A stretch of 64,000 nucleotides of DNA, taken from assembly GCA_963718895.1 (NCBI GenBank), contig CAVRAG010000008.1:288001-352000 (forward strand), given 5' to 3'. The notes beneath the pieces were generated by a model, which was given only the letters and a program-made list of their open reading frames with translations, searched no databases and was not told where the DNA came from. This DNA comes from an uncultured Nitrososphaerota archaeon. GTDB lineage: Archaea > Thermoproteota > Nitrososphaeria > Nitrososphaerales > Gagatemarchaeaceae. The translations under genes were made by a program, and so were the position numbers. The first letter of the stretch is position 1, and each line of letters begins with the position of its first letter. Below are positions 21,047-55,230 of this stretch, in pieces.

Positions 21047-21087
21047 GTGTGGCGACCCACGAGAGGCGTTATTAAGACGAGAATACG

Positions 21088-21105: not shown

Positions 21106-21236
21106 CGCCGGCAAAGTCGGACCGTCATTGGAGGGGCTGCGACCGGCGAGCGGGACCGGCGAGGAAGCGGAAAGTAACAATGGTCGAGGACCTGGTCGGT
21201 GATCGGAGCGGACCGGATGCTGCCATCCGGTCCGTC

Positions 21237-25231: not shown

Positions 25232-25272
25232 AAGTGTAGCGCGGCCTGCAGGCTTAAGAGAAAACGGGCACG

Positions 25273-25290
25273 TTTCTCAACTTTGAGAAC
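25273..25290. promoter_or_regulatory. Palindromic operator
   Basis: TTTCTCAacttTGAGAAC upstream of the 25231 start. Confidence 0.75.
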
Positions 25291-25334
25291 AGGAATCCGT
25301 CCGAGGTAAAACCCCTACTTGCGCTAGCGCACAC

Positions 25335-25750
25335 CTAGACCTCAAACCGACAGCCTGATGTTCTGATTGAAGCGGAAAAAGCTTGGTCTGGTCGCCCTTG
25401 TCCCTCAGCGCTGTCAACCTGCTGAGGCTTCTGTTCCGCATGCCACTCCCTGTCCTCGCCCTCTTCGTCCATGAAATTCACGGAGGCTCCCCGTCGAGAA
25501 CATGCCCACGACGGCGAAAGAATTCCATCGACCAATCGATGTGCTTCTGGTTCTCTCTCGATGGTCCACGTGGAAGTTAGGTTGACGGTGAATGGTGCGT
25601 CGCGATAGCTGTATGATATGGAAAGGTCTACGGGCATAGCTGAGGCTCCTCCTAGCCGTGAGGTGTGGATGGCTGACAGAGGCGACGTGACCTTCGACCC
25701 GGACTCCAGGATGGTGCCAATCGCCGAGCATTTGATGCATGAGGAGAGTG
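25335..25750 (-). pseudogene. C-terminal remnant of a berberine-bridge-type oxidoreductase
   Basis: PVDLS.SY..RDAPF.VN...STW and VNFMDEEGE match the 3' end of 17659..19080. Confidence 0.65.
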
Positions 25751-25778
25751 GGCCCGAGTCTGCCCATCTTGACCCGCC

Positions 25779-27193
25779 TCACCAGTCGATGTGCACGTGC
25801 TTCGCGTCCGGGCTTCCCGGTGGGACAGCTTTGCCCGGGGCTGCCTCGCAGACGCTGTGGTAGCCGGCCCTGACGCAGGCCTGGTAGAGTACCTCCAGCG
25901 CCGATGGGCTGGAAGGGTCAGGGGCAAGGTCGAGGGCCCGGCCGTAGACGTGTGGGTTCTTCGGATGGAAGTCACCGGTCGCCATGTTCCTCTGGGGAGA
26001 CCGGAAGCCGGAGACGACGCGGAGCGAACCGCGGGGTTCCCTCCCGTACTCCAGGCCAATCCTGTCGAAGGCGGCCTGCATCCCGCCGTCGACGACCAAT
26101 TCGTAATTCCCGATATTGAAGGACTTGTCGACCGCATGAGCGATGAAGTCGCTCCTCGGAGGCACGACGCTCTCGCCGTGGTCGATGTACTCCTGCCTCA
26201 GGAGGTCGACGTCGTCCTGGACGAGGATGAAGTGTTGTTCGATGCCCTCGAACGCCGCTGAGACATCATACTGGAGCGGCCTATTGCGGACGGTCGACCC
26301 GTCGGTCGGGCGCGTCCCGGGGTTGGGCTTGAACGCGAAGGTCATGCTGCAGACGTGTGGTCGGGGACCCCGCTCCCGCTGAACGGGCCCATCGCCTTCA
26401 CCTGCCACGAGGTCAACCTCGCCCAGCCCGACTCTGGCACCGTCACGCCCGGGATCGCAAGGCGAAGGCTGATAGAGTCGGTCGAGACGAACGAGTAGCG
26501 ACCGGCCGGTCCACGGTCATCCCGCTCGATGTTGAATTGCGGGATAAGCGCGAAGGTCCAGGTAGTGGTCCGGGTCCCCAGGCCGGCCTCGTCCTCGAAC
26601 GTCTGTGTTATGGTCTGGGGTTCGGGGTCCTTGAGGTCTATCGAGACGTGTTTGAACTCCTTTATGCCTGTCTGGGGCAGGCTGTGCACCACGACGAGGT
26701 CGACCTCGCGTTCGGATGGGATTACCGGCACCGCTGGAGGCGACATCACGTTGAGCACGGTCGAAGGGTCCTCAGGTCTCGGAGCAGGCCAACCCCAATT
26801 GAAAGCGGTTGAGAAGGGCTGGGCTACGGGTGTGGCGCCATGCGCTACATCCGCCAATAGAGTCTGCAGGCCCTTCGCCTCGGCTCCCGAGCTACGGATC
26901 GCGATGCTTATCGATTCGGTCACAGGGTCGAAGGTTCCCGCCAAGGTCCATCCCGCGGTCCCTTCCCCTCTCATCTGCATGGTCTCGGTAGTGACCTCGA
27001 GGTCGAAAGTCCCGACCATCCTTCCGGCGACGGAGTTCGCCGGGATGACGGACTCTTCCGGCTGAGGATCGGGGCCTAGTGCAACAAACACAGTGAACGC
27101 CAGACTTCCCTCAAAGCTGAAGGAGACCGAATTCTTGCCGCTTATAGAACTGGTCGCGATTGCTTTGGCAGCCCAAGGGCTTAGAATCTCCAA
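25779..27193 (-). CDS. Protein with unknown N-terminal beta domains and C-terminal peptidase M15 (Zn D-Ala-D-Ala peptidase-like) domain; one frameshift near 26355
   Basis: SGFRSPQRN...HVYGRALD (H-x6-D) and terminal HVHIDW. Confidence 0.75.
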
Positions 27194-27415
27194 GATCGTG
27201 AGTCTCCATTCAGGGGAACGATTTTTCGATATTTAAGAGAGGAGCTTCGCAGATGGAGTGGCGCCTAGTGCATTTCAAGTTTCGGCCAAAGAAGAGTGCA
27301 ATCCCGTGACGGCTGCACGCCAAACGATGACGAAAATAGAGGTGTGAAGGTTTGGGCTCGTCTGCGAACGCGGAAGAATCGGAGTCGCCGGGAGACGCCG
27401 AAAGTAGAGAGGAGA

Positions 27416-27440
27416 GGAAGCTCCATTCTCAGGAGCTTCC
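27416..27440 (-). terminator. Hairpin plus pyrimidine run after flavoprotein gene
   Basis: GGAAGCTCC-7nt-GGAGCTTCC, then TCTCCTCTCTACTTT on the minus strand. Confidence 0.55.
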
Positions 27441-27451
27441 CACCACTGAGC

Positions 27452-29293
27452 CTACGATGTCCAGGGAGTTTCGGCTGCTGCGTTGGTCCCGGCGATGCGC
27501 CCGAAGGCGATCAGCTCGCAGATGTCGCCCCCGCCCGTTGGGTAAAGGAACCCATAGACGGAGCCGTTCTCGCCGTTGCCGTATAGCCTCGGAATCGGGT
27601 TGTCGTAGGGGTCGGTAATCTGCGATTTCGCGTTGCGCTGAAGTCCGCCCTGGGTGTTCGGTCCTCCTACCCAAAGTGGGAGCGCATAGTACGGAGGCGT
27701 CTGCAGCGGGGCCATCGTCAGGGCGGTCCGCTGGAAGAGCGTGTCGCCCTTGCCTGCGGCGCAGTCCACGTTGTACTGGTTCACAGCTGCTATCAGGTTG
27801 GCCGAGGAGAAGTTGGGCGCGTTGGTTCCATCGGGTATGGTGACCGTGTCCATGCTCTCGGCGGCGTTCCAGCTCGGTGGAACGGTCATCCCCTGGTTCG
27901 AGCCGATGATATTCCATTTTGCGATGTTCGCGGCCAGCGTGGGGAGATCTGGTCCGGACATGATCCATCCAGCAGCTATCTCAGTGGCGTTGTTCGAGCT
28001 CCAGGGAGTTCCAGGTGACGAGCCGGCACCGAGTACTCCTCCAAGCTGGACTGGAGTCGAAGTGGGGCCTCCGGATGCAACAGGGCCTTTCTGGCAATAG
28101 GTGTTGTCGAAGATTACGAAGGATGGAAGGTTGGTGTACTCGCCGACGACCAGGTTGAAGCCGTTCATTGCGCACCATCCGCTGTGGGATGGGTAGCCGC
28201 TTTCGTTCAGGAAGCGCTGGCCGTATCTGTTCACCCAGATGTAGTTGTTGGTGGGGTTGTTGTAGGACCATCCCTGGTTGAGCCTGGGTACCCAGGGCTC
28301 GGGGCGTCCGGACACCGCGTTCATGTGCCACAGGGCCGCTCCGACCTTCTGGCCCATCTTGATCCCGTCTCCGGTGTTGTACTGCCACCCGTAGAAGTGA
28401 TCGGGATAGGCCTTGAGGAATCTCACCTTCATGACGTCGTCGTACTCGAATCCTCCTGTGCAGATGATGACTCCCCGCTTGGCCTGGATGTTGAGAATCT
28501 GACTTCCACTCTGACTCGCCTGTACGCCTAGAATCTCACCGGTCGTCGGGTTCTGTATTAGGCCCGTGGCCCGGGTGTTGAAGAGCACAGGTATGTTCCT
28601 CTTCTGGACGAAGCCGTCCAGGAACTTGAAGAGCTGCTGGCCTTGCCCGTTCACGTTGTAGTTGCTGATCGAGGAATAGCCAGGGACGTTCGGGAACTCG
28701 CCGCTCATGCTGGCGAGAGTACAGGGGATGCCCATGGAGTCCAGCCACGCCTTGTTCTGGTTCGCCATCGTGCCCCAAGCTTCGCAGACGTCCATCGGAG
28801 TCGCGCCGAACGAGAGGCTGTACAGGTGCTGCGCTCCGGCCACCGGATCGGTGGGCCATACGCACAGCCCTCCAGAGATGTGGGTGTTCCCTCCCCCTCC
28901 GGAGATCTGGTCCGAGGCTTGCGTGCCGTTGGTGATCCCCAAACTTGCAAGGCTCGGCGTCTTCTCGAGTATCACCACGTTGGCTCCGGCATCATAGGCC
29001 GTGACGGCCGAAACCGCGCCCGCCCCTCCGTAACCTACCACGACCACGTCTGCGGACTGGGACCATGTCGTGGGAACTGGTATCGGGGCACCCTTGCTGA
29101 CCGACGACGCCCTATGAATCACTGAGACCTCACCCCTAGCGCCGGCGCTTGCTGCCGCCGACGCAAACCTAGGATTGAGAGAGGACGCGGCCACCGCCGT
29201 CCCTCCTACCGCAGCGGCTCCGACCACCGCAGTCCCCAAGAAGCTCCTTCTCGATAGCTTCAAGTTGCTGAGCTTTCCCTTATCATTAGTCAT
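27452..29293 (-). CDS. Tat-exported FAD_binding_2 flavoprotein
   Basis: SRRSFLG, GYGGAG, GGGNTHISGG, GQRFLNE, GGPNTQGG, RLYGNGE, YPTGGGDI..IAFGRIAG. Confidence 0.9.
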   Translation of the reverse strand: MTNDKGKLSNLKLSRRSFLGTAVVGAAAVGGTAVAASSLNPRFASAAASAGARGEVSVIHRASSVSKGAPIPVPTTWSQSADVVVVGYGGAGAVSAVTAYDAGANVVILEKTPSLASLGITNGTQASDQISGGGGNTHISGGLCVWPTDPVAGAQHLYSLSFGATPMDVCEAWGTMANQNKAWLDSMGIPCTLASMSGEFPNVPGYSSISNYNVNGQGQQLFKFLDGFVQKRNIPVLFNTRATGLIQNPTTGEILGVQASQSGSQILNIQAKRGVIICTGGFEYDDVMKVRFLKAYPDHFYGWQYNTGDGIKMGQKVGAALWHMNAVSGRPEPWVPRLNQGWSYNNPTNNYIWVNRYGQRFLNESGYPSHSGWCAMNGFNLVVGEYTNLPSFVIFDNTYCQKGPVASGGPTSTPVQLGGVLGAGSSPGTPWSSNNATEIAAGWIMSGPDLPTLAANIAKWNIIGSNQGMTVPPSWNAAESMDTVTIPDGTNAPNFSSANLIAAVNQYNVDCAAGKGDTLFQRTALTMAPLQTPPYYALPLWVGGPNTQGGLQRNAKSQITDPYDNPIPRLYGNGENGSVYGFLYPTGGGDICELIAFGRIAGTNAAAETPWTS

Positions 29294-29334
29294 AAACCAA
29301 AGTCCGCCTGTAGCGTTAATAAAGAACGTACACG

Positions 29335-29352
29335 ATTCTCAACTTTGAGAAC
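29335..29352. promoter_or_regulatory. Palindromic operator
   Basis: ATTCTCAacttTGAGAAC, 11 bp from minus-strand TTTATTAA. Confidence 0.8.
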
Positions 29353-29573
29353 TCCTCGATTGATGGAATTCCCAGGCATCCTGAGCTGTGCAGACTTGGA
29401 ACTGGTCTAGACATGCCCGAATCAAGAATCAGGATGGCCGTGAGACTCCTCTCTTCCGAAATATTGAGAAAACAAGTGCGCCCCAAAGACCGTCCTTCAG
29501 ACACTTAGTCGTGTTAGCCGCCAGGAGGCTCCTAGCGGCCGACGCGATTGGTGTTCAACCCAGAGCGACTGCT

Positions 29574-31032
29574 CTAGGCTGCCGGTTTCTTCGACCTAGA
29601 GCCCGCTACGAGGTACCCGATGGCGAGCCCGACGATCAGGAGGACCACCATTGCACCATAGGCCCAAGCCGGGACTCCCGAGGACGAACTGCCAGTGCCT
29701 GTCGAAGTCACTGTAGCCGTTGTGGTGGAGACCGATGTGGCGACCGAGGTTATGGTTGTTGGCAGCGTCGTCGTGCTCGATCACCGTCGAAGTGACGGCC
29801 GACGCGGGCGTGTAGGAGAAGGTCGAATTTGCGTGGAAGGATCCGTATGTGGCCTTCACGGAGTACGTGCCGCTCACCCAGAGGCTGTTGACTCCGGGGT
29901 GGAACGTGTCATTGAACGCTCCGTTCGATGCCACCGTGGCGCTGTCAGCGAACACTACGGCGCCCGCAGGGTTCGTTATAGTCAGAGTGACTAGGTAGCC
30001 GTAGGTGGCACCAGTCAGAGTGCCGGATATGGTACCGGTCGGAGTCCCCACGTAGCTGCCGGAATTCGTGGAGACGGAGACCGCCGTGACGGGCGAAGTG
30101 AACGTCGACGTGGAGGACGAAGAGGTCGTCGTGCTTCCGGATGAGGAAGAGGTCGTGCTTGTGGATGCTGACGAACTGGTCGTGCTCGAGGACGAACTTG
30201 TGGTCGAGCTGGAGCTGGACTTTGTCGAGCTGGTGGTTGTCGAGCTTGTGGTGGTACTAGATGTCGAACTGGTGGTCGAGCTTGTGGTGGTCGAAGACGT
30301 AGTGCTGCTGGACGTGGTCGAGCTGGAGGTTGTTGTTACTCCGCAGGTAGTGCAGGCGCTGCCGCTGAAGGTCAACACGTATGAGGCCATGTCGGTCGCG
30401 CCGTGGTCTCCTGGATTGTTGAATTCGCCGACGGCGAAGCCGAGCTCAATCGTGGAGCCTACACCCAACTTTGGAAAGTCGTAGGGAGAGGCGCCAGAGA
30501 GCGTGAAGGGTCGATAGCACTCGGCCGTGTACACGCCGCTCGCTACCGTCAGACCGCACACAGATTGGGTCTTGTATCCCAGCGACTCTACTGTCGAAGG
30601 AGTCTGCTCGCCGGCGCTGACGAACTCGTCAACGTTTCCCTTGAACGAGGGGCTGGCGAGTATCATTATGGTGGGTGTGGAAGGCCCTCCCATCACCTGT
30701 GTGTTGTTGAGGTAACCGATCTCTATTCCACCGAAGCAGTTCGTGTCACTGCAGTAGAAGGGAGATGACTTCCAGGTCATGAGGAAGAGCCATCCCGATA
30801 CGTTCTGTTTTACCGCGAAGGTGATTCCCGAGGTCGGATCCGTGAGCACCGCGGTGTCCGTCCATTGGGAAGCTGAATAAGTTCCGTGAACGTTGACGGC
30901 AATCGTGGACTTGTAGCCGGTCACCGTCGTGGGCGCGCCCATGGCCGCACCTACCGACATGGCCGACACTAGTGCCATCAGGACCATGATAGCAGAAATC
31001 CTAGAAACGCTGAGTTTGGGTTTGTTAAGCAA
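29574..31032 (-). CDS. Secreted DOMON-like protein with Ser/Thr stalk, Ig-like domain and C-terminal TM anchor; frameshift near 29780
   Basis: Signal peptide, QVMGG...NNPGDHGA, long S/T tract; the shifted frame gives VPAWAYGAMVVLLIVGLAIGYLVAGSRSKKPAA-stop at 29574. Confidence 0.7.
30110..30340 (-). repeat. Low-complexity Ser/Thr-coding tract
   Basis: TTTSSSTTSSSTTSS... about 75 aa. Confidence 0.8.
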
Positions 31033-31081
31033 TTTTGCTCTAGCTTCCCGTGCTTGCTGCCGTAATTAAAGGCAGAGGACA

Positions 31082-31099
31082 ATTCTCAAAGATGAGAAT
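31082..31099. promoter_or_regulatory. Palindromic operator
   Basis: ATTCTCAaagaTGAGAAT, 11 bp from minus-strand TTTAATTA. Confidence 0.8.
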
Positions 31100-31776
31100 G
31101 GAATTTCGAGGCCTCGGAATCCAGGGAGGTAGCAACCCGGCACCCGTCCAGCTTCCTATTGACAGCTCCAAGCCAACGAGTGAGACGTCCGCGTGGACGA
31201 GCCGTTCTCTTGGAGGGGCCAATGCGCAAGCTCCTCACGTCCGAATGAAGAGAGCTCAAGGAGTGGAGAACTGGCGCTCGATCCGCAGCGGGAGGACCCG
31301 AATTCTCTTGCGAACGAAGAAGACGATATGATCTCTTTCCATCGAGCCCACGGCATCGATCTAAGGAACGGAGGCCGCGCACTGAGGTTCCGGCGCCATA
31401 GTCTCAGTTTTCTGTGAGGTCGCACCCGCGCGACCGAATTCGCACGCTATCCGGAGACACTGACGACTCGCGCTCTACGCGACCATGCAGAATCGCGTGC
31501 CGACGGGAGTGGAACCTGTTTCAGCCCCGCCTCTTCCGCGCCATAGCGTAGGCCAGGGTTGCGCGATTCTGAAGACGGTGTCCAACGTCGGTTGTTGTGG
31601 CTCAGTTAAGATGATCGTCGTGTGGTAGCGCCCGGGAGAGGTCGGCAGAAGAAGCTGCGACCCTTGAATCGGCAGAAATCCTCCTGCTGTTCACACGTAA
31701 CCCGCATCCGAGAATCGGGGACGCCTGATGCGGACTAGCATCCCCACGACGCCGGCCTCGCAAATCCGCTGGAGCT

Positions 31777-32412
31777 CTAGCTCGGGGCGGCCTTCGGTTT
31801 CGGAGCCCTGAGGTACGCTATCAGGGCGACTACGATGCCTACGACGACCAGAGCCGCGGTGATTTCGATGTCGACCGCCTGGACAGTGAACGTGCTCCAG
31901 CTGAAGGAGAGCGCCGAGTAGATCGGCTGGAATCCAGACTCCCCGAGCGTGATCTCAGCGCCCATCGACGCGGTCAGCGAGGTGAAGACGAATCCCAAGA
32001 CGGCCGTGAGCAGGTAGACCAAGTAGAGCCCTGTTCGCTTCCACACTCCGGACCCGAACCAGTACCTGAGGAAGAAGAAAGCAGCCCAGAAGAAGAGCGA
32101 TCCAAGGGCGAACAGGGACTTGTTGATCAGCAATGGCTGGGAGACCAGCGTCGAGTAAGGATAGATCAGGTAGCCCGTGACTCCCGAGAGGATCAGGAAC
32201 AGAACGGCCGCGAACGAGCCTACGTATGCGATCACGTCAGACGCGGTTCGTATGTTCTGGACGCGGGGCGAGGCAACCTTCCCTCTCGACGCGATGTCAG
32301 CCAGGACCCTCACTGCCAGTGCCAGCATGATGAAGACTATGATGCCGCTGTGCTCCTCGACCACGAGGGAGTGCCAGATGTTGATTGGAACGCCGAAGAC
32401 TTCCATTTCCAT
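31777..32412 (-). CDS. Five-TM membrane protein, DUF2231-like (possible heme b carrier)
   Basis: WHSLVVEEHSG near the N-terminus, ILSGVTGY, LTASMGAEIT; coupled to the upstream DOMON-like gene. Confidence 0.6.
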   Translation of the reverse strand: MEMEVFGVPINIWHSLVVEEHSGIIVFIMLALAVRVLADIASRGKVASPRVQNIRTASDVIAYVGSFAAVLFLILSGVTGYLIYPYSTLVSQPLLINKSLFALGSLFFWAAFFFLRYWFGSGVWKRTGLYLVYLLTAVLGFVFTSLTASMGAEITLGESGFQPIYSALSFSWSTFTVQAVDIEITAALVVVGIVVALIAYLRAPKPKAAPS

Positions 32413-33335
32413 CAGCTCCTTTGGTACCTCATCATCACAATCAGCAGGAAGACGCTAAAGCCGATCACCACTATGGCCAGTTCCTCCCAGTAGTTTGAGA
32501 CGCTCGGACCGGAGGGAGTGGTCTGGCTCGAGGTGGAAGTCTGAGAGGTCGTGGACGTGGTCGTGGTGGAGGTCGTGGAAGTGGATGACAGGCTCGACCC
32601 TGTCGATGCTGAGCTCCCCGTGCCTGACGAGGAACTTGTGGTGGTCGTCGACGTGGTAGCTGCAGGCCCCAAGACCAGCGTGTACGAGTTCATGTTTGTC
32701 GCCGCGTGCTGACCAGGATTGGCAAAAGCGCCTACCGCGAACCCGATCTCTATCGAAGAGCCTGCAACGAGGGCAGGAAACGGATCATATGGAGAGGCGC
32801 CGTTAAGCTTGAACGGCCTGTAGCACTGGGCGGTGTAGGTCGACCCGGAGAGGGCCAGGGAACAGGTGGATTGCGATTTGTAGCCGTGGGATTCCACGGT
32901 CGAAGGCGTTACTGCGCCCGCTGATATGAATTCGTCAAAGTTACCTTTGAAGGAGGGGCTCGCGAGGACCATGATGGTAGGAGTCAGTGCTGAACCCATC
33001 TCGGCGGTGTTATTCAGGAACCCCAGTTCTACGCCCCCAAAACAGGATTGACTCGAGCACATGAGACCTCCGTTCGCCCACTGCATCAAGAAGAGAAGCC
33101 CGGTCGAGTTGTACTTGAACGCCACAGTCATGCCCGCCGTGGATACCGTGATCATCTGGGTATCGGTCCATTCACTCGGGGAGTACGGGGCGCCGATGTT
33201 CACCGGGATCTGCGCCGATGTCGCGGTGATGGCCGTAGCCGTCTGGGCCCTCGCCTGCTGGACGGGCGCCACGGAGAGCAGAACAAGGAACATGATTGTG
33301 ACCGGAGCAATGAGACTCCATTTGCGGATAGCCAA
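32412..33335 (-). CDS. Secreted DOMON-like protein with Ser/Thr linker and C-terminal TM anchor
   Basis: Paralog of the 29574..31032 head domain (TAEMGS...PTIM, FANPGQHAA). Confidence 0.7.
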   Translation of the reverse strand: MAIRKWSLIAPVTIMFLVLLSVAPVQQARAQTATAITATSAQIPVNIGAPYSPSEWTDTQMITVSTAGMTVAFKYNSTGLLFLMQWANGGLMCSSQSCFGGVELGFLNNTAEMGSALTPTIMVLASPSFKGNFDEFISAGAVTPSTVESHGYKSQSTCSLALSGSTYTAQCYRPFKLNGASPYDPFPALVAGSSIEIGFAVGAFANPGQHAATNMNSYTLVLGPAATTSTTTTSSSSGTGSSASTGSSLSSTSTTSTTTTSTTSQTSTSSQTTPSGPSVSNYWEELAIVVIGFSVFLLIVMMRYQRS

Positions 33336-33581: not shown

Positions 33582-35169
33582 CTACCGCATCTTCAGGTAC
33601 CTGTCGTTTCCTCGCGCGTCGACCGCATGCACAGTGCACGCCAGGCACAGGTCGAATGACCGTATCACGTAGGCCGTCTGTCGCAAGTCATCATCAGTTC
33701 CGGCGCTTCCCACAGGCGTACCCACAAGCGCACCCTCCATAGGCCCGTTCGGGCAGACGTTCCAGGTCGTTGGCGCTATCACCTGATAGTTGTCGACCTT
33801 CTGATTCTTTATGCTTATCCAGTGCAGCAGGGAACCTCTCGGTGCTTCCAAAAGGCCGATTCCCGTGGCCTGGCCAGGGTTCTGATAGGAGGGGTTGTAG
33901 GATGACGAGCCTACATCCATGGCTTTGAGCCAGAACTCCATCAAGCCCGATTGGGGCAGTCCGAGTGCGTTCAGGACATCAACCAGCGACAGGTTCAGGT
34001 TCTGTCCGAGGACCTGGAGGTTCGGGGTCGTGTTGTTGGAACCGACCAGGGCCACGAGTTCGACCGCCCTCGCGACCATCCTGTCGAAGACCGAACCCAT
34101 CGGGTTGAGCGGCAGTCCGGGGACGCCTGGGATGATTCCGTGGATGACCTGCCCGAGCTTCGGGTATATGCCAGAGACGTACTCTCGCGCGAGAGGCCCT
34201 GACTCGCAGAACTGACCGCTGTACTTTGGAGCCTTCCCCCAGGTGTACGCTTGGGAGTTCGTCATGTCTGGGACAGGTGTCTGCTCTCCTATCACAGGCT
34301 CCGGTGTCGGCTGATCGTACCAAGAGAGGGAGGTATCTTCTGTGATTTGGGTCGGGTCGAAGGGGACGGGTGTGGTGCTCGGGCTCAGTATGACTCCTCT
34401 AGGAAGTGTCAGTGGCATGTTGCTCGTGCGGCTGGACGTGGTAGGGTCCTGGAATGCACCCATCGCGACGAAGCTTCCCGACCCGCTTCCAAGGGCAGCC
34501 AGCGAAGCCGCGTTGGCGGTGAAGTAGTTCCAGATCGACCGGGGCCGCGATGTCGAGCGTCGTCCTGAACGTGGCAATTCTCGACAGCGTCTGCTCGATC
34601 ACGTCGGCGGTCGGCCTGACAGGGTTTCCTCCAGGTATCGAGCCCCTCTGGTGGGGCGCCTTCCCGCCCCAGAGCGTGATTATCTGGTGCATCAACGCCT
34701 GGGCAGGGATTATCACTACCCTCAGGAGATCCGCGTAACTGTTCACGACTATCGACTTCGAGAGCACGTCGAGAAGGCCGTAGAGCTTGTAGTCGGGTCC
34801 CGCGAGCGCCAGAATGTGGGCCGCATGCGAGTACGTCCAGTCAGCACCGAGGATGACGTTACGGGCGAGCACTGCGTTCGCCGGCAGGGATGTCGTCTCG
34901 TTCGCATAGCCGTTGGTGTACTGGGTCATACCCGCAGCGTTCTCGACCGCCCTGACCGAAGCGATGTGGTGGTCGCTGTGACAGACTCCGCAGATGGCGG
35001 AGAGTATGGGCGCGCAGTCCCTGGGATCCCTGTTGAGGACTATGTTCTCGAACCCTCGGTACATGGACGCGGTGTTTCTCGCGGTCTTCACGGCACCGTT
35101 CTCGACGTCGAGCTCCAGCTTGAGGTGGCCTTCGATTCTAGTTACAGGATCGATGATGATTGTCGGCAT
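33582..35169 (-). CDS. [NiFe]-hydrogenase large subunit (group 1-type), frameshift near 34540
   Basis: DPVTRIEGH, YRGFE, L1 SAICGVCHSDH, EAPRG, PTTWN, L2 RSFDLCLACTVH plus cleavable tail. Confidence 0.92.
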
Positions 35170-36094
35170 CAGTTTCCACCCTCCGCCTTGAGCCTCTCGA
35201 GTTCGAGAGGGTGTTGGTCGCGCATCTCTTCCTCAGATAGCGTTCCTGTCAGAAATACTTTGTTCATCGGGAATTCGCGTGGGTTCCAGTGTGTCTGATA
35301 GAAATGGAATACCAGGAGAAAGAGCACGGCGAGCATCGCCTCGTCGGTATGAAAGACGAAGGGGAGACCGTCGAGGAAGGTGGAACCATACGCCCAGAGG
35401 ATGACTCCGGGGACAGCCAATATTATCATGCCCCAGTATATGCCCCAGTAGTCGAACTTCTGACCATAATCGTACTTTCCGTACTTCGGTCCTTCCTTGG
35501 CCCACCCCAGCATGTGCTTCATGTTCTGTATGGCGTCGGTGATGTCACCCTTACCGATCATTATGGGCAACGGTGCAGGTTCGCCACGAGCGCGCCTTGC
35601 GAGATACTGCGCGGTGTAAAACCCAAAGTGGTAGAGTACGAGCGCGCCGAGGAATAGTGCAGCCAAGAGGTGGACGTCCATGCTAATCGCCAGACCGCCC
35701 ATCGCGTTGATGACAACGCGCCCCACGCCTCGTAGTACAGCTGCGCGAAACCCGTCACCGCCAGGATTGCGGTGGACGTGAACAGCCAAATGTGCTGCAC
35801 CCTCTGGTTCAGGTCGAACCTCTTGACCTTAGGTCCCTCGACGCGCCTTCCCACGCCGCTGGCGGCTTTGTAGACGAGGTCCAGTCCGTTATGGAAGATC
35901 GCGAACAGGATGAGGCCGGTTATGAGAAGCTCAAAGAACAGATTCACGAGATAGGGGAGACCCAGCGACCAAGGAGTGGTGAGAATCGGGCTTACGACGT
36001 CGAAGACCAGCCATGAGAAGGCGATTCCGGCGACCATCGCGAAGACGACAATGCTTTCCAGGTTCTTGCCCGAGAACGGATGATTCACGGCCAA
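35169..36094 (-). CDS. Hydrogenase/formate dehydrogenase-type cytochrome b subunit, frameshift near 35715
   Basis: RFDLNQRVQH, DVH, LYH, GKYDYGQKFDYW, FH...VFHFY. Confidence 0.85.
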
Positions 36095-37279
36095 TCACCC
36101 CTTGGGGGGTGCGTCGGTCGCCGTCTTCTCCTCCTTCTTGGCCTCCTCTCCCTTCTTCGACTTCATGGCGAGGCCGACTGCCAGACCGGCGCCCACGACC
36201 AGGGCGGCACCGCCGGCGAGTTCGAGCGTCGGGATGTCGACACCAGGGAAGTGCGGGACCGCTTCAAAGAACGAACTTGTGGGAGGGTCAGGAAAGTTCG
36301 GATGCATGCACCCCCAGCACATCGGGCCGGCCTGGGTGCAGAAGCTTAATCCGCCGTTCCACTTTGTCTCCGCACAAGCGGACACGGTTATCGGACCTTT
36401 GCACCCCAGATCCCAGAGACACTCGGGGTCGTCGAAGTTCGACGCGAACTGCCCTGCGTCATAGTAACCCCTTCTGGGGCAGGTTTCGTGTATGTAGCGG
36501 TTGAAGAACGCGGTCGGTCGTCCGAGGTCGTCCAGATCTGGTGCGAAGCCCTGGAGGACGGAGGCGAGCGTTATGAGCGTCCAGTCTGGGTGGGCGGGAC
36601 AGCCCGCAAGATTCACTACTGGGTTCTTGGTGGTCACACCTGCCATCTTCAGAGCTTCGGTCACGGGGACCGCGCCGGTCAGGTTGCCTTTGCCCGCGGG
36701 AATGCCGCCAAAGGACGAACACTGTCCCACTGCGATGACCCAGCTCGCTTTCGCGGCCAGCTTCTGTAGGAGCGTATAGGCGTTCACGTCATGGCCGTCG
36801 TACTGCCCGATCTTGCAGAAGTCACCCTGCGACCCTCCTTTGGGCGTCCCCAACTGAGGGGTTCCCTCGACCACGAGGACGTCGACTGGAGCGTCTCCGA
36901 AGGCAGCGTTCATGAGCGGCACCTGGGATTGGTCTTCCGTCGTCATGCCCGCGGTTACCCAGCCGGAACCACCAAGCTGGTAGTCAGGCGACATGAACGT
37001 GTCCCAGAAGTCGGCTGAGATGCTGAGGTTCTGGGCTGCTTCTATCAGGTCTGGGTTGGATGCCTGGAGCATGGAGACGGTGCAGCCCGAATCTCCGCCC
37101 ATGGGGAGCCAGATTAGGTGCACGTTCCCCCCGTTCTGCTGGGCGACCTGGGCAAGGGCCTGCTTGATTCCGGCAGAATAGTAGGTCACTACCGCCCCGG
37201 CTCCCATGAACGCGCACAGCTTCAGAAAATCACGCCTTGCGAATTTCGCCTTCGTTATTCCCGGCTTTTGCATAGCCAT
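36095..37279 (-). CDS. [NiFe]-hydrogenase small subunit with Tat signal and C-terminal TM anchor
   Basis: RRDFLK, DSGCT, VEG, GQCSSFGG, GCPAHP, IHETCPRR, CLWDLGCKGP, CTQAGPMCWGC. Confidence 0.92.
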   Translation of the reverse strand: MAMQKPGITKAKFARRDFLKLCAFMGAGAVVTYYSAGIKQALAQVAQQNGGNVHLIWLPMGGDSGCTVSMLQASNPDLIEAAQNLSISADFWDTFMSPDYQLGGSGWVTAGMTTEDQSQVPLMNAAFGDAPVDVLVVEGTPQLGTPKGGSQGDFCKIGQYDGHDVNAYTLLQKLAAKASWVIAVGQCSSFGGIPAGKGNLTGAVPVTEALKMAGVTTKNPVVNLAGCPAHPDWTLITLASVLQGFAPDLDDLGRPTAFFNRYIHETCPRRGYYDAGQFASNFDDPECLWDLGCKGPITVSACAETKWNGGLSFCTQAGPMCWGCMHPNFPDPPTSSFFEAVPHFPGVDIPTLELAGGAALVVGAGLAVGLAMKSKKGEEAKKEEKTATDAPPKG

Positions 37280-37563: not shown

Positions 37564-38361
37564 TTAGCCGCGTCCTCCGACGGTCAGCCGTTGGATGAGA
37601 TCTCTGAGCGCGGCCGAGGTGCTATTGTGTCCCCTAAGAATCTTGACCAAACCCTGAGAATTCACCTTCGGCTCCAGGGGTATCTCAGCTATTATCCTCG
37701 AATGGAGCGCCTCCTCCAAGACCCTCTTGTTTGCCCTTCCAAAGGGGTGCGTCCTGTGCCCCCCAAGGCTCTCCGCGAAGGCCATGTTGAGGACTATGCC
37801 CTCGACCGGGACCCCCTCCGACTCCGCCAGCCTCCTCAGTCGGGAGACCACGCTTATCGCGTTCAGAGAAGGGGTGGTGACCAGAACAATGCTTGACTTG
37901 CCGGCGAAAAGGTCGAACGCGGAAAAGTGCTCATCTCCAGTGGAGGGAGGAAGGTCGACGACGAGATAGTCGAGCGCACCCCAGTCTGTGAGAGCCAGGA
38001 GGTGCGTTATGAAATCCTGCTTCTCTTCTCCACGCATCGGGACAGGATTGTTGCCCGCGAGCAACGCCACCGACATCACCTGCAAGCCCTTCGTCACCTT
38101 GGGTTGCAGGCCATTCTTGCTGCTCTTGAGGGGAGGCCTCACCTCGAGGTAGTTCGGAACGCTCGCACCATGTATGTCAATGTCGAGGATACCGGTTCGG
38201 TATCCTTTCTCAGATAGCAGCAATGCGATGGCACACGAGACGAAGCTCTTTCCAACGCCTCCCTTTCCGCTCCCCACCAGGATCACCTTCCCAAACTTGT
38301 CCACTCTCCTCCGCGCCTCCTGTTTCTGGAACGAAAATCGGCGCTTCTGGCTACTCTTCAT
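37564..38361 (-). CDS. Mrp/MinD-family ATPase, probable ATPase-type HypB partner of HypA
   Basis: SGKGGVGKS, DIDIHG, DYLVVDLPP; no central CxxC; overlaps hypA stop. Confidence 0.8.
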   Translation of the reverse strand: MKSSQKRRFSFQKQEARRRVDKFGKVILVGSGKGGVGKSFVSCAIALLLSEKGYRTGILDIDIHGASVPNYLEVRPPLKSSKNGLQPKVTKGLQVMSVALLAGNNPVPMRGEEKQDFITHLLALTDWGALDYLVVDLPPSTGDEHFSAFDLFAGKSSIVLVTTPSLNAISVVSRLRRLAESEGVPVEGIVLNMAFAESLGGHRTHPFGRANKRVLEEALHSRIIAEIPLEPKVNSQGLVKILRGHNSTSAALRDLIQRLTVGGRG

Positions 38362-38795
38362 TCCAAGACCAGCTTCCTGATTTGCACGTCCTCTCCCTCC
38401 GTCACCTCGACGTCGGAACTCCCGCACTTCGGACAGTGGATGAAGGCTGGGTAGAGGTAGGGGAGGAAGTGCAGCGGCAGTTCGTCGCTGTCGGGTTCCT
38501 CCACCAGGAGGTCCTCCGGCACGGCACCTAGCTGCCGCTTCGCCTCTTCCATGCCCCATCTCGACGAGCACCTTCGGCACTCAAATGCGGCACGTGTCAT
38601 CTCGATCCTGACATGACAGTCCTTGAATTTCCCGCCTGCCGTGAGCATCTTCAGCGCGTCTCCGAGCACCTTCATATCCACCTGCATCAACTCGCCCACG
38701 TCGACCCACAGTTCCTTCACTTTCTCCGCCTTGTGCTTGTCGGTCTCGGAGAGAGCGAAATCTGCTATGCTCTGGGCGACGCTTAGCTCGTGCAT
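38358..38795 (-). CDS. hypA: Hydrogenase nickel metallochaperone HypA (long-insert archaeal type)
   Basis: MHELSVA, CRRC...LHFLP...CPKCGS. Confidence 0.92.
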   Translation of the reverse strand: MHELSVAQSIADFALSETDKHKAEKVKELWVDVGELMQVDMKVLGDALKMLTAGGKFKDCHVRIEMTRAAFECRRCSSRWGMEEAKRQLGAVPEDLLVEEPDSDELPLHFLPYLYPAFIHCPKCGSSDVEVTEGEDVQIRKLVLE

Positions 38796-38897
38796 CTTCA
38801 ACCAATAACTTGGAGACCTCCGTATTTGAGCCTTTGAATGGATCTGCACGGGTGGTTAGGGAAAAGGTAAAATCATACTGAGAGGCGAATACGCGAG

Positions 38898-39404
38898 ATG
38901 ACTTGGACCGCCGAGCAAGATCCTGACCTTTCTCAGGTGCCGGTCGAAGGAAAGAGCGTCGTCATAGGCCTCGGCAATCCCTACATGAAGGATGACGGAG
39001 TCGGGATCGAGGTGGCGAGAGAGCTCGGACGTCGAGCCCTCGGGCCCGAAGTCCTCGTATTTGAATATCAGACACTGGAACTGTCTCTCCTCTGGCAGTT
39101 CAGAGGCGCTTCAAAGATAGTCATCGTCGACGCAATGAGGTCCGGAGGGAGGGTCGGAACGGTCACTACGCACGCAATCGCGCCCAGAGATGGACCTCTA
39201 GTCGACCTGCCCGGCCTGCACTCCCTACAGCTGTACGACATGTTCGACCTTGCAAACCAGTCTGGAACGCTTCCCTGTCCGGTGACCATTGTAGGGGTGG
39301 AGCCCTCGGACACCAACCCTGGTGAGGGGCTTACAGAACTAGTCTCGGCCGCCGTGATGCCCGCCGCAGACACTGTTGTTCATGCACTCTATGGTAGACC
39401 CTAG
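38898..39404 (+). CDS. Hydrogenase maturation endopeptidase
   Basis: VIGLGNPYMKDDGVG, IVIVDA, LH, IVGVEP. Confidence 0.9.
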   Translation: MTWTAEQDPDLSQVPVEGKSVVIGLGNPYMKDDGVGIEVARELGRRALGPEVLVFEYQTLELSLLWQFRGASKIVIVDAMRSGGRVGTVTTHAIAPRDGPLVDLPGLHSLQLYDMFDLANQSGTLPCPVTIVGVEPSDTNPGEGLTELVSAAVMPAADTVVHALYGRP

Positions 39405-40687
39405 GCCTGCGCTAGAGGGGTCGCTGAGCGCCCCGGCTCGCGGAGGAAGATTGCCACGATGAAAGCCAGCGAGATCGGAATCATCGCGTCCAGGGCGACG
39501 GCCCTCCCCACGCCTAGTGTGAACAAAGACGCGGCGATGAATGTTGAGAAGATCGTTGCAACTGATTGGGCGGACGTACTGAGTCCCAACGCGCTTCCCG
39601 TCGTCCCGCCGGCGCTGTCGGTCATCAGAGATTGAACAACGGGGAATATGGAGGCACTGAAAAATCCCATCGAGAGCGCGGCGGCCATGTACAGCGCGAA
39701 GGTGGACGACGAGAAGAAGACGGCGTAGGAGAGGAAGGTCGCGAGAGTGACGGCGACCAGCAGCCTGTTCCTCCTGACAGAGTCGGATAGGCCGCCGAGA
39801 ATAATCTTCCCAAATGCGCCCGCAATCAGCACGGGCGAAGAGAGCAGCGAGGCAGAGAGGACCGTGAAGTGCATTACCTTGAAGAAATAGTATGGCAGAA
39901 AGACGACCTGCCAGACGCTCGCCCAGGTAGCCAGCAGGGCGAACACCATGATCAGAACCACGTTCCTTCGTCTGAGCAGCTGCTTCGCATCCCTTCCCAG
40001 GCGAATGCCACTGACGCCCTGACCGGCTGCGGCGAGCTTCTTCCTGGCAATCAAAGCTGCTGCTATGACGACCAGCCCGATGAGTGGGGCGAAGAAGAAC
40101 GCTGGTCGCCAGCTTGAGGTCAGGGTGTAGGCGACACCTCCTATCGCGAGTCCGGCGGTGCTTCCGGCATCGAACCCAACGTAGAATATGCCGAGAGCCA
40201 GCCCTTTGCGTCCCTTGAAGTAGGTAGCCACGCTCGCCATGGCGACAGGCCAGAAGGCTCCCTCCCCGAGCCCGCTGATAAGACGGAACGTGAAGGCCTC
40301 GGCGAAATTCAATGAGAACCCGATGAGCCACGTAAAAGTCGTGAAGAGAGCGAGGCCGCCGATTATCACCGGCCACCTCCCGTACCTGTCCGAGAGGTAC
40401 CCAGCGGCGAACACGATGCAGGTTACACCGATGTACTGGGCGGCGCCCAGAAGGCCTATCTCAGAATTTGTGAGCCCGAGCGAGGACGACACCGGGGCCA
40501 AGACAGCTGAGAGAACTGTCCTGTCGACTGCGTAGACGGCGTACCCCATCGTCAGTATGAACAACAATGCCGCGGACGGACCCTGGTGAGCGAGTGGCCC
40601 CAAGAGGCTCTTTGGTGAACCAAGCGCTGAGATCTTCTGAAGGATCCGATCGCTTCTTGACGCCGTAGTCCGAGCGCCTTTCTCCAT
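39401..40687 (-). CDS. MFS transporter
   Basis: AVDRTVLS, GYLSDRYGR, RLISGLGEG; about 12 TMs. Confidence 0.9.
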   Translation of the reverse strand: MEKGARTTASRSDRILQKISALGSPKSLLGPLAHQGPSAALLFILTMGYAVYAVDRTVLSAVLAPVSSSLGLTNSEIGLLGAAQYIGVTCIVFAAGYLSDRYGRWPVIIGGLALFTTFTWLIGFSLNFAEAFTFRLISGLGEGAFWPVAMASVATYFKGRKGLALGIFYVGFDAGSTAGLAIGGVAYTLTSSWRPAFFFAPLIGLVVIAAALIARKKLAAAGQGVSGIRLGRDAKQLLRRRNVVLIMVFALLATWASVWQVVFLPYYFFKVMHFTVLSASLLSSPVLIAGAFGKIILGGLSDSVRRNRLLVAVTLATFLSYAVFFSSSTFALYMAAALSMGFFSASIFPVVQSLMTDSAGGTTGSALGLSTSAQSVATIFSTFIAASLFTLGVGRAVALDAMIPISLAFIVAIFLREPGRSATPLAQA

Positions 40688-40691: not shown

Positions 40692-41480
40692 CTACCGCGG
40701 CTTGCGTAAGGCCACGAGCCGGTTTGTCGCCTCGATGTCCAGGGCGGTGTATGACCTTAGGTTCCCGAGCTGACGCGGCGTGAGTTTCTCGCTGGCGAAG
40801 TTCCAATGCAGGCTGACCCAGTTCCCTCGCCTGATGGTCGAGAAGGGGGAAATCTCGCTGTCGTAGTGGACCTCCCTCTTCTCGGGAGCCCCCAATAGAA
40901 GGTCTTCATCACGGAACGCGAGCGGCACCCTTTCTACGACGAGCGTCTTCTGCTTGACCTCGAGCACCCGTCCCCAGGACACCCTGCACGAATCCATCAA
41001 GTCCAGCAGTTTGCCTCGGTTAGCGGTCTTGATATTGGATCTTGCATACATCCCCAGCACATAGAACGTATGGTGCGGTTTGGCGATTGCCCCATACTCG
41101 CGGAAGAGCAGCTTTGTCTCCTCTTTGCTGACCCCGTCTTTCTTTCCAATCCTCTCTCTTGACGAACTAAGGTCTCTGTGGGTGAAGTCGAAAAACTCCG
41201 ATGGTTGCACGCCGTCGAGAAGGGAGTTCCCTATCCAGTAGGCTTCGGTAACCTCCTTGTCGAATGGTTGCCTGCCCGTGGATTTTGCTATCATTCGAAC
41301 GAAGGGATACGCCGCCTCGAACTTTTTCAGCGTAGATGTCAGGCCTTCGCTCACCGAGGAAGAGTGGAGATGCTCAAGTATCCTCCCGTTCTCGTCCGGC
41401 CCGCAGTAACCGAGGCTGTTGGGCTGCAGCGCGTGCTTCGCGTGGAGGAGCTCTCCCTCAATCTCCGACTTTCTCTTCAA
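40692..41480 (-). CDS. DUF6390-like protein (hydrogenase-associated)
   Basis: PNSLGYCGP, FEAAYPF, VTEAYWIGN.LL, PHHTF, DSCRVSWG, GNWVSLHW. Confidence 0.75.
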   Translation of the reverse strand: MKRKSEIEGELLHAKHALQPNSLGYCGPDENGRILEHLHSSSVSEGLTSTLKKFEAAYPFVRMIAKSTGRQPFDKEVTEAYWIGNSLLDGVQPSEFFDFTHRDLSSSRERIGKKDGVSKEETKLLFREYGAIAKPHHTFYVLGMYARSNIKTANRGKLLDLMDSCRVSWGRVLEVKQKTLVVERVPLAFRDEDLLLGAPEKREVHYDSEISPFSTIRRGNWVSLHWNFASEKLTPRQLGNLRSYTALDIEATNRLVALRKPR

Positions 41481-41710
41481 GGCGCGGCCTCCCTGAGCCG
41501 GTTCATCTCCAACCGGAGGTCCCTCTTGAACTCGGCTTCTCTCTTTGTGATTCGCCCAATCGCTTGATCTGCGAAGACCTCGACGTAGGAACCCTTCCTG
41601 GCGCGCACCATCGAGACATCTACCTCGCCCACTTCACCGCTGTCGAGATAGAGCACCGAAGCAGCGGTGCTCTTGATCGAGAGGACCCTGCCGACCCTGG
41701 TGACGCACAT
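41477..41710 (-). CDS. hypC: HypC/HybG-like chaperone (divergent)
   Basis: N-terminal MC, OB-fold pattern, GSYVEVF (conserved His replaced), C-terminal helix. Confidence 0.7.
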   Translation of the reverse strand: MCVTRVGRVLSIKSTAASVLYLDSGEVGEVDVSMVRARKGSYVEVFADQAIGRITKREAEFKRDLRLEMNRLREAAP

Positions 41711-44698: not shown

Positions 44699-46309
44699 TT
44701 GGCCGTTGCTCGCCTCAGCAGGGTCACGTTGGAAGCCCCCAAGGGCGAGCTGGGCCTGGTCCTGGCAAGGCTAATCAAGTTCGGAGCGTTTCACCCGTCG
44801 AAGAGCGAAGGGATGGTCCAGGACGTCGGGTTGCTCATGCTCGGGTCGAGGGCCCAGGCGGTAAACGCACGGGCGACGGAGCTGCTCGGCAAGGAAGGCG
44901 CCAAGCGCGAAGGTAGCCCGTCGGTTCTCGAGCGATTTCAGGCGCACACTATAGACGAACTTGTAAGTTCGCTCGAGGAGTTTGTCGAGATAATCGAGAA
45001 GAACCTCTCGCTCTTCACGGAGGACGAGGACAGGAGAGGCATAATCGACGTGCTTCTGGGGGTCCGAGAAGCCTCTGCCATGATCTTCGGGGACCTTCAG
45101 AAGATCCTCGTCTTTCCACGGAGCGACGGGTCGGTAAGGTTAGAAGGTTTCATCGCAGCAGGGTCGGCCAAGTCGTTTAGCAGTCAGCTTGGCCAGTATG
45201 TCCACTCGGTTGAGCAGGTCAAGACCCAGGACAAGGGCAGCCCCTACGTTCCCACGCTTCTGGTCAATCCGAGAATCATATCGATCTTCGAAGACCTTAC
45301 CCTCCAGAGAGGCCTGCCACGCTACGGCCAGGTCGACCCGACGCCGATAATTGCGTTCGTCTTCCCCCTCTTCTTTGGGATAATGTTCGCCGACATCGGC
45401 CACGGGATCGCACTGCTCGCTTTCGGTCTGTATCTTGTCAACAGGACGGCCTACAGGGGCTGGGGGAAGCAGGTCATCGTACTGAGCTCATCGACGATGG
45501 TCTTCGGGTTCATCAGAGGGTCCATCTTCGGATTGACGTTCCCGTCACCCCTTGGAAGCGTGGTCCCTCTGCCCCCCGGGTTAAGCGCCTCCTTCACTCT
45601 GTCCTCCGTCCCGTTCCTGCTCGAGGTCGCGGTGGTCGTGGGGACTTTCCATCTGGCGAGCGGCTACTGGATAGCTTTCGTCAACCAAGAGCACGCGGGC
45701 AACTACGTCGATGCGTTCCTGAACCGGCTCCCCACGGTCGTTCTGTATGTGTTCATCGTCCTCTTCGGCCTTGCGGTCGTGGGGACGACCTTGGACCTCG
45801 GCGTCCTCTTTACCAGCGCGGCCCCCACGCCGGTCTTCGACGACCTGCTCGGACTGAGAATACCTGTATCGGCGACGGCCACGCTCTCGCTCCCGGTGAT
45901 CGTCGCGACCTTCTCGCTCATCGTGATTGGCCACCCCATTGGGGAATACCTGGCGTACAGAAACCTTAGGGGCACCGCAAAGGCCTTCGCCTCGGGGCTG
46001 GTCGACGCCGTCGTCAAGCCCTTTGAGTTCTTCGTCAACACCATCAGCTACGTGAGACTGGGCGTCCTCCTGATCACGACGACGCTCCTCGGCAGTCTGG
46101 TTGCGGGGGTGATGTCGGAGGGGATAGCAGGCGCCCTCGTAGCCATCCTACTGAACGTCGTTGTGATAGCTCTGGAGGGTGTGATTGTCTACATCCAGGA
46201 CATGCGGCTCCAGCTCTATGAATGGTTCTCCGAGTTCTACGTCGGGAACGGGACTCCGTTCGTGGGCTTGGTCTCAGGCGGCAGCCACTTCGTCGTCAGT
46301 TGGACCTGA
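44699..46309 (+). CDS. Orphan, shortened A/V-type ATPase subunit I (a) paralog
   Basis: PTLL.NP, P.YGQVDPT, FFGIMFADIGHG, NTISYVRL, MRLQLYEWFSEFY.G.G..F. Confidence 0.85.
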   Translation: MAVARLSRVTLEAPKGELGLVLARLIKFGAFHPSKSEGMVQDVGLLMLGSRAQAVNARATELLGKEGAKREGSPSVLERFQAHTIDELVSSLEEFVEIIEKNLSLFTEDEDRRGIIDVLLGVREASAMIFGDLQKILVFPRSDGSVRLEGFIAAGSAKSFSSQLGQYVHSVEQVKTQDKGSPYVPTLLVNPRIISIFEDLTLQRGLPRYGQVDPTPIIAFVFPLFFGIMFADIGHGIALLAFGLYLVNRTAYRGWGKQVIVLSSSTMVFGFIRGSIFGLTFPSPLGSVVPLPPGLSASFTLSSVPFLLEVAVVVGTFHLASGYWIAFVNQEHAGNYVDAFLNRLPTVVLYVFIVLFGLAVVGTTLDLGVLFTSAAPTPVFDDLLGLRIPVSATATLSLPVIVATFSLIVIGHPIGEYLAYRNLRGTAKAFASGLVDAVVKPFEFFVNTISYVRLGVLLITTTLLGSLVAGVMSEGIAGALVAILLNVVVIALEGVIVYIQDMRLQLYEWFSEFYVGNGTPFVGLVSGGSHFVVSWT

Positions 46310-55203: not shown

Positions 55204-55230
55204 CACAGCGAATATAGGAAAGAACACAGT

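Follow-up and report, generated by a model that had tools for sequence, protein, structure and literature searches.

An isolated archaeal branch of group 1 [NiFe]-hydrogenases with Asp at the first proximal-cluster position in Gagatemarchaeaceae

Hydrogenase genes and their ligand motifs

The window analyzed here is a stretch of 64,000 nucleotides from an uncultured archaeon of the family Gagatemarchaeaceae, order Nitrososphaerales (GCA_963718895.1, contig CAVRAG010000008.1, positions 288,001 to 352,000). On its minus strand, positions 33582..37279 encode a [NiFe]-hydrogenase with non-canonical active-site and proximal-cluster motifs. The small subunit (36095..37279) carries a twin-arginine translocation (Tat) motif, RRDFLK, and a C-terminal membrane helix at residues 354-372. 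Next to it on the same strand lie an FdnI-like cytochrome b (35169..36094) and the large subunit (33582..35169). Both of these are in two pieces in the assembly, the former through a one-base deletion near 35721 and the latter through one extra base near 34536. The best profile for the small subunit is the NiFeSe small subunit NF045520 (214 bits, under the cut-off of 470), and the NiFeSe/1a family model NF033181 likewise stays below its cut-off (326.6 versus 600). Four His of the cytochrome b are kept in seven correctly framed relatives; an eighth alignment row, in the wrong frame, was disregarded.

The L1 motif of the large subunit is SAICGVC (within 35001-34969), with Ala (codon GCC) in place of the usual Arg, and the L2 motif is SFDLCLAC (33659-33627), which lacks the Pro of DPC. 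Both traits belong to a whole clade. Among 120 large-subunit homologs, Arg is found at L1 in none of the 116 that were parsed (Ala in 114, Ser in two), and 118 of 119 parsed sequences have no Pro at L2 (DL 72, NL 38, DM 7, NV 1, DP 1). The clade therefore departs from both group 1 consensus motifs, RxCGxC and DPCxxC. Outside it, 126 of 129 parsed representatives carry the L1 Arg, and one of the exceptions is a mis-parsed fragment. The four metal-binding Cys, the catalytic Glu (RIEG) and the canopy Arg (APRG) are all kept in the window, as the original prediction had stated. In E. coli HyaB numbering, the close relative L001 retains E28, C76, C79, H229, P508, R509, T532, D574, C576, C579 and H582, and has Ser at both the E73 and D118 positions. 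E73 and H229 are described as close to the proximal cluster (PMC3940037), and Arg74 would, from its position, lie near it as well. The large subunit ends in a 14-residue C-terminal extension predicted to be cleavable by a protease. Its AlphaFold model has a pLDDT under 50 across most active-site segments and was not used. One subclade (L145, L147, L194-L197 and many of L142-L190) shows further changes: L2 reads NLCMAC, in which the canopy Asp is Asn, RIEG continues as RIEGE or RIEGK, and L1 has an extra Cys (CGVCYCDHH). One of its members has DPC.

The proximal motif of the small subunit is DSGC (within 37099-37079), in which Asp (codon GAT) holds the first ligand position; this D-x-x-C is joined by two further Cys. 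Of the 64 distinct small subunits of the clade, 60 have Asp as the first proximal ligand and four have Glu. Of 108 small subunits from outside, none has Asp or Glu there; 105 have Cys, and the other three are mis-framed or truncated. In 36 of the 108, Cys comes first and Asp or Asn is the second ligand, a type of substitution that available text discusses for groups 1f, 1h and 2a (PMC5364354; PMC11023054). No case of first-position Asp or Glu outside the clade was found in the sequences compared or the literature searched. The medial site, FCTQAGPMCWGC (36343-36308), has four Cys, and the distal site is of the His/3Cys type. The extra medial Cys had been singled out as a special feature. It is present as claimed; as a novelty it is ruled out, being an ordinary trait of 1a-like enzymes that is common to the [NiFeSe] group 1a structures and to haloarchaeal and other archaeal enzymes.

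Base-call error is ruled out as the origin of these motifs by close relatives, short-read contigs and clade-wide conservation. L1 and the small-subunit motifs are common to all seven close relatives (L001-L007), and DLC is common to all five whose loci cover L2 in full. Short-read contigs are identical to the window across L2 (X1 record 1 and X3 record 17) and across the Asp codon (X1 record 4), and set X1 may come from the source sample. The L1 codon is covered by no contig piece among those listed. The original prediction had quoted the three motifs, with codons for Ala and Asp, had held a base-call slip at the Asp codon to be unlikely and had asked whether homologs share the changes; the motifs and codons have stood and the homologs do share the changes, with 116/116 sequences lacking Arg, 118/119 lacking Pro and 64/64 carrying Asp or Glu. 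Its proposed check of the bases and the frameshifts in reads succeeded in part: the L2 and Asp codons agree, and neither frameshift is bridged by the short-read contigs listed. The extra and the missing base are defined against three relatives. Relatives L001-L005 read through the large-subunit junction without a break, and L006 and L007 are broken elsewhere. Six other frameshift flags, some probably counted twice, occur in the 62 kb of host genome covered by relatives' proteins, and the two at this locus are probably assembly errors. Values of dN/dS range from 0.05 to 0.23 over six gene segments and are no higher in pairs that include the window.

Placement among group 1 enzymes

Large-subunit trees were computed with FastTree (139 rows) and with a quick IQ-TREE run (68 sequences of a slightly enlarged set, LG+G4, SH-aLRT support only). 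Group labels in these trees come from record names and are partly our presumption; named references for groups 1g, 1j and 1k were lacking. In both trees the clade has 100% SH support and a stem of about 0.7. It is nested, with 95-96% support, among enzymes of haloarchaea and of unnamed archaea, and stands apart from the Desulfovibrio 1a, the 1d and the 1h references. An unnamed 'Euryarchaeota' protein is also among its neighbors. The large subunit groups with groups 1 and 2 and not with the group 3-like rows that form the outgroup. The sister lineage, weakly supported at 81%, is from Thermoproteota and has canonical RICGVC, DPC and CTGC motifs; the nearest canonical relatives (family f46) retain Arg, DPC and CxxC. 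Members of the clade with HypDEF are early-branching. At 50% identity the clade forms one cluster; its full-length representative reaches 994 bits, and the runner-up among full-length proteins 355.

The 401 genomes of the order include 18 carriers of the clade, of which 15 belong to the host family (f1), one to family f7 and two to family f19. These carriers are non-ammonia-oxidizing Nitrososphaerales, Gagatemarchaeaceae and their kin. No other genome of the phylum reached clade-level scores in a 400-genome sample. The closest named locus is that of Ca. Gagatemarchaeum stordalenia, at 94% over the N-terminal half.

Tat export, three clusters in the small subunit and an electron acceptor in the membrane, as predicted here from the genes, are typical of group 1. 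Published subgroup motifs were compared through secondary papers. Of the traits of HydDB group 1a, the enzyme has the four medial Cys and lacks the four-Cys proximal cluster. The CxxD proximal motif, the L1 motif TSRICGICGDNH and the cytoplasmic small subunit of group 1h are absent, as are Cys19, Cys120 and Glu73 of group 1d. Synthesis of Fe(CN)2CO encoded by HypCDEF, another mark of group 1, is present in the two f19 carriers and was not found in the other 16. The enzyme is an isolated, unclassified archaeal branch of group 1 that, for every subgroup checked, falls short on motifs and on maturation, and a nearest-neighbor classifier would probably assign it to 1a or 1j. That it is membrane-anchored and belongs to a distinct lineage of group 1 had been foreseen, and the Tat motif, the C-terminal helix, the cytochrome b and the separate, long-stemmed clade of the large-subunit tree bear this out.

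Three known systems help to place the enzyme. The first is HydABC of Natrarchaeobaculum sulfurireducens (HydDB 1a), which falls in the same archaeal cluster of the tree (SH 95) and is reported to cluster with Archaeoglobi (PMC6176080). Like the window enzyme, it has a Tat-type small subunit with a membrane tail, four medial Cys, a cytochrome b and an L1 without Arg (GMVCGVC). It differs in having only about 31% identity, in keeping its own CxxC and DPC, in its adjoining canonical hypC, hypD and hypE, and in the anaerobic H2 use of its host. The same GMVCGVC is read in the sole hydrogenase of Natrarchaeobaculum AArc-Mg, a member of a group described as gaining energy from H2 (PMC6176080). Loss of the L1 Arg thus need not abolish activity. 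The non-canonical motifs that were originally stressed are of unequal weight: the first-position Asp is specific to the clade, whereas an Arg-less L1 is known from a haloarchaeal 1a enzyme.

The second system is the [NiFeSe] 1a hydrogenase of Desulfovibrio and Desulfomicrobium (PDB 2wpn, 3ze6 and 1cc1), which gives the best PDB sequence matches to the small subunit and, within the large subunit, to the N-terminal half. It shares the medial [4Fe-4S] cluster and Ser at the D118 position. It lies on a separate branch, and the window enzyme differs in having no selenocysteine, no L1 Arg and no L2 Pro and in its first-ligand Asp. The third is the actinobacterial-type group 1h (PDB 5aa5), whose proximal cluster is also described as having three Cys and one Asp (PMC11023054). 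There, however, Asp is the second ligand (CDGD in Embleya) instead of the first, and the two enzymes are far apart in the tree. Group 1h is further described as having no Tat signal, no membrane tail and other L1 and L2 motifs (PMC5364354).

The clade uses two types of cytochrome b, one FdnI-like and encoded upstream of the large subunit, the other HydC-like and encoded downstream. The upstream type was counted in 15 loci and was missing from 57, in a count that detects this type alone. All five loci inspected among the latter have a different cytochrome b downstream. Examples of the HydC-like type are found at L199:10788-11498 and L145:11589-12260 and in L138, L140 and L133, compared with 35169-36094 in the window. 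The small-subunit membrane helix has no His in the window and has one in the aligned members with the downstream type.

According to a 2024 paper, Thaumarchaeota genomes contain no hydrogenases of groups 1 and 2 (PMC11630254), and another source mentions groups 1a, 1g and 1j for some orders of Thermoproteota (PMC11094006). Clade members may already be binned as 1a or 1j in supplements. The supplement of the Gagatemarchaeaceae paper lists K06281/K06282 as present in three family genomes, and 'NiFe' does not occur in its main text (PMC10640624). The motifs of the enzyme and DUF6390, discussed below, are undescribed in the literature searched, which excluded subscription journals and most supplements.

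Maturation genes and neighboring proteins

Upstream of the operon lies a set of maturation genes. On the minus strand are a Mrp/ApbC-type P-loop NTPase (37564..38370), which is a probable HypA partner or Fe-S carrier, and the nickel chaperone HypA (38358..38849). A hydrogenase maturation protease follows on the plus strand (38898..39404). Back on the minus strand are an MFS permease (39401..40687), which adjoins DUF6390 and HypC in relatives too, DUF6390 itself (40692..41480), made of a helical N-terminal domain and a HypC-like domain (residues 163-252), and a HypC-like chaperone (41477..41710) that keeps Cys2 and has Phe in place of a conserved His.

Making the Fe(CN)2CO unit of [NiFe]-hydrogenases is considered to require HypD, HypE and HypF. 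HypD, HypF, HypE, HypB and HydG were not found in the host genome, which is 80.5% complete. Across carriers, HypD, HypF and HypE exceed their cut-offs in none of the 16 from f1 and f7 and in both from f19; DUF6390 has the reverse distribution (15/16 and 0/2). Among 54 chosen genomes of the order, HypF occurs in none of 17 with DUF6390, and DUF6390 in none of 24 with HypF over cut-off. Within the host family (97 genomes), 40 have a large-subunit match, 36 have DUF6390, 34 have both, 55 have neither and one has HypD. Of the 26 family genomes with a completeness of 90% or more, 14 match the large subunit and none yielded HypD. HydG was not found in any of five family genomes tested, so that HydG was rejected as a replacement source of CO and CN. 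Six family genomes have a large-subunit match without DUF6390, and three of them were inspected: G213 has HypD, G097 has no protein with both Cys motifs, and G228 (75% complete) has a canonical 3b enzyme.

The pattern extends to other hydrogenases. Large subunits of groups 3b and 4 with canonical motifs occur in genomes without HypD. Genomes G153 and G159, each a single contig, carry a canonical four-Cys large subunit of group 4 at ~7-8 kb from HypC and DUF6390, and HypD, HypF and HypE were not found in them. A membrane-bound group 4 operon with canonical motifs sits beside HypC/DUF6390, without HypD, at four loci (L232-L235, in G159, G153, G036 and G135). Conversely, clade members with full HypABCDEF (L199 and L138) bear the same motifs as the window. 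Since HypDEF-bearing members share the motifs, the motif changes and the loss of HypDEF are independent, and an origin of the former in the latter is ruled out by these members and by the canonical enzymes of HypD-less genomes.

The HypC and DUF6390 proteins have features of their own. Phe replaces the conserved His in all 10 aligned HypC copies linked to DUF6390, and His is kept in the f19 carriers. A second His-less type, with Tyr at this site, is found at L147:7137-7448 and L194:1315-1626, where it adjoins a large subunit of group 3-like type near the group 1 operon. The predicted fold of DUF6390 has a pLDDT of 86.5. HypC was the best match to its residues 163-252 in two structure searches (Z 5.3, rmsd 2.0, 71 residues). 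Cys165 and His225 are invariant in 95 sequences; fold, Cys and His match HypC, yet the Cys is internal and not a free N-terminal residue. A predicted DUF6390-HypC complex scored 0.59, against 0.00 for the best control, with at least 77% of contacts agreeing between runs and a partner pLDDT of at least 81. Of 157 solved pairs, 116 passed the same mark, as did two of 215 mismatches, both with scores of 0.60 or less. The model weakly suggests that the two proteins associate, and resemblance to HypC structures already solved may explain the pass. In the canonical scaffold formed by HypC or HybG with HypD, described in available text (PMC8692609), the essential Cys2 and the HypC-like folds are shared with the window system. 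HypA and the protease are present in both. In contrast to canonical maturation, no HypD, HypE, HypF or HypB was found here, the stand-alone HypC lacks His, and a second HypC-like domain in DUF6390 and an adjacent permease are added.

DUF6390 is not by itself a replacement for HypDEF, because on a Sulfobacillus plasmid it lies within a full HypCDEF cluster; an exclusive replacement is ruled out by this plasmid. A viral search for the family was empty. In some proteins DUF6390 is fused to an ArsR-type helix-turn-helix (P0372, P0377, P0385, P0391, P0392; L201, L208), and some genomes have two copies side by side. Fusions and paired copies hint at a ligand-sensing regulator.

Another companion is the B12-binding radical-SAM protein TIGR04190 (46318..48177, minus strand), which accompanies the clade. 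It is found in 19 of 97 family genomes, namely 14 of the 15 carriers and five of the 82 others, and in the f7 carrier; neither f19 carrier has it. Its gene is present in 43 of 107 mapped loci and often directly adjoins the operon (it tracks the clade in L191, L192, L193, L195-L197 and L204 too). The distribution does not follow that of DUF6390. A role as a general CO/CN source is unlikely, since the protein is absent from the DUF6390-positive genomes G153, G159 and G132. From its co-occurrence, it could modify the hydrogenase or its quinone.

Downstream of the operon, minus-strand genes at 27452..33335 stay beside the hydrogenase in a few relatives, and their link to it is uncertain. They encode two EB_dh/DOMON-like proteins (32412-33335 and 29596-31032), a membrane protein (31777-32412) and a Tat-type FAD flavoprotein (27452-29293). 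More widely, 19274-33335 holds several Tat-type FAD_binding_2 flavoproteins and membrane-anchored EB_dh/DOMON-like proteins, and two further paralogs of the latter lie elsewhere on the contig. Other features of the window include duplicated gene pairs (626-3781 and 6214-9441), in which a protein similar to gluconate-2-dehydrogenase subunit 3 and bearing a long coiled-coil insert is accompanied by a 620-aa partner that matches no Pfam family. A stand-alone gene similar to V-type ATPase subunit I, with an adjoining universal stress protein (44699-46309), is likewise near the hydrogenase in several relatives. Near the EF-1alpha gene, a 475-aa open reading frame (55165-56592) has helix-turn-helix and weak LAGLIDADG-like matches.

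Proposed function and significance

On balance, the genes probably encode a working, Tat-exported, membrane-bound H2-uptake enzyme of an unclassified group 1 branch, linked to a heme-copper oxidase and matured by a non-canonical route, a reading that we hold with only slight preference. H2 would be split on the outer side of the membrane. Electrons would pass from a proximal cluster, either [4Fe-4S] or [3Fe-4S], bound by three Cys and Asp, to the medial and distal [4Fe-4S] clusters, and from there through the cytochrome b and quinone to O2 at the oxidase. The host genome has two matches to heme-copper oxidase, which is also present in 16 of 17 other carriers, and no match to a molybdopterin reductase was found in it; these results favor the path from H2 through quinone to O2. 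A futalosine menaquinone marker was not found in the host genome either. The Gagatemarchaeaceae are described as aerobic (PMC10640624), and H2 might supplement heterotrophy in micro-oxic soil or peat. The changes of Cys to Asp, Arg to Ala and Glu/Gln73 to Ser would probably act together to adjust the interface of the subunits near the proximal cluster. The altered redox or O2 behavior that was originally suggested stays a prediction. In group 1h the Asp ligand is reported to be required for O2 insensitivity (PMC11023054), and by analogy the window enzyme may resist O2. In most hosts the Fe(CN)2CO unit would not come from HypDEF and would be handled by DUF6390 and the His-less HypC. Import of a precursor, most likely by the MFS permease, is favored because no CO/CN-forming enzyme was found. 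HypA and Mrp would then insert Ni, and the protease would close the site.

Several observations weigh against this reading. Two of the structural genes, those for the large subunit and the cytochrome b, are frameshifted in the assembly, and no short-read contig among those listed bridges either break. The host genome is incomplete, at 80.5%, and the hosts are metagenome-assembled and mutual kin, so the counts are not independent events. The O2-tolerance markers of group 1d are absent, and the nearest named relatives are described as anaerobic with O2-sensitive-type 1a enzymes (PMC6176080). On the maturation side, the HypC match of DUF6390 has a Foldseek E-value of only 0.009, and DUF6390 occurs within the full cluster of the Sulfobacillus plasmid.

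The strongest alternative, which we consider rather unlikely, is an ordinary O2-sensitive uptake enzyme similar to 1a or 1j, whose altered motifs would reflect tolerated drift along a long branch. Maturation would still be non-canonical, and electrons would go to anaerobic acceptors such as the neighboring exported flavoprotein reductases. The tree groups the enzyme with haloarchaeal 1a enzymes whose hosts oxidize H2 anaerobically, one of these neighbors also lacks the L1 Arg, and the best profiles are of the NiFeSe/1a type. Asp or Asn as a proximal ligand recurs in several groups (PMC5364354), including the 36 of 108 second-position cases, and FAD flavoproteins and EB_dh-like proteins adjoin the operon in some relatives. 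Yet selection is indicated by the fixation of the three changes in sequences as distant as ~60% identity. The search of the host genome yielded no molybdopterin reductase, and a flavoprotein gene is beside the hydrogenase in only eight of 107 loci, many of them short.

It is improbable that the protein, without HypDEF, holds another metal site that lacks the cyanide/CO iron and has an activity other than H2 oxidation. The failure to find HypD, HypE and HypF in 16 carriers or HydG in five family genomes would fit such a site, as would the further changes of the NLC subclade (RIEGE/RIEGK) and the co-traveling B12 radical-SAM gene. The residues that contact CN and CO (equivalents of P508/R509 and T532) are kept, however, as are HypC Cys2, HypA and the protease; L199 and L138 combine the motifs with full HypABCDEF, and canonical group 3b and 4 large subunits also occur without HypD. 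Least probable of all is a decaying pseudogene cluster, or an assembly artefact behind the missing maturases, which two frameshifts in 3.7 kb and the incomplete genome would suggest but which is opposed by the open frame in L001-L005, low dN/dS, the six other flags (some probably counted twice) in 62 kb of the same genome, the failure to find HypD in the 26 most complete family genomes (14 with a large-subunit match) and the failure to find HypD, HypF and HypE in single-contig G153 and G159 with their group 4 enzyme.

Beyond the preferred reading of a working, oxidase-linked uptake hydrogenase, a broader proposal can be made only tentatively. It is possible, though we give it less than an even chance, that soil and peat archaea oxidize H2 aerobically with a subgroup whose carboxylate first ligand is an independent route to O2 resistance. 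A ready-made iron-cyano(carbonyl) precursor of Fe(CN)2CO, supplied by the surrounding community, would be taken up by the MFS permease and passed by DUF6390 and the His-less HypC to any [NiFe] large subunit (groups 1, 3b and 4), without HypD, HypE, HypF or HydG, and TIGR04190 may modify the hydrogenase or quinone.

The enzyme represents a candidate subgroup of respiratory hydrogenases in a common family of acidic-soil archaea, whose defining paper places the genes only in its supplement. A natural first-position Asp, beside the second-position Asp of group 1h, offers a test of how the proximal cluster sets O2 tolerance. The family also offers a contrast, with HypD/E/F present and absent in the same clade and three hydrogenase groups in HypD-less genomes. 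If true, a four-gene alternative or salvage route would alter the model of hydrogenase maturation and could simplify heterologous production.

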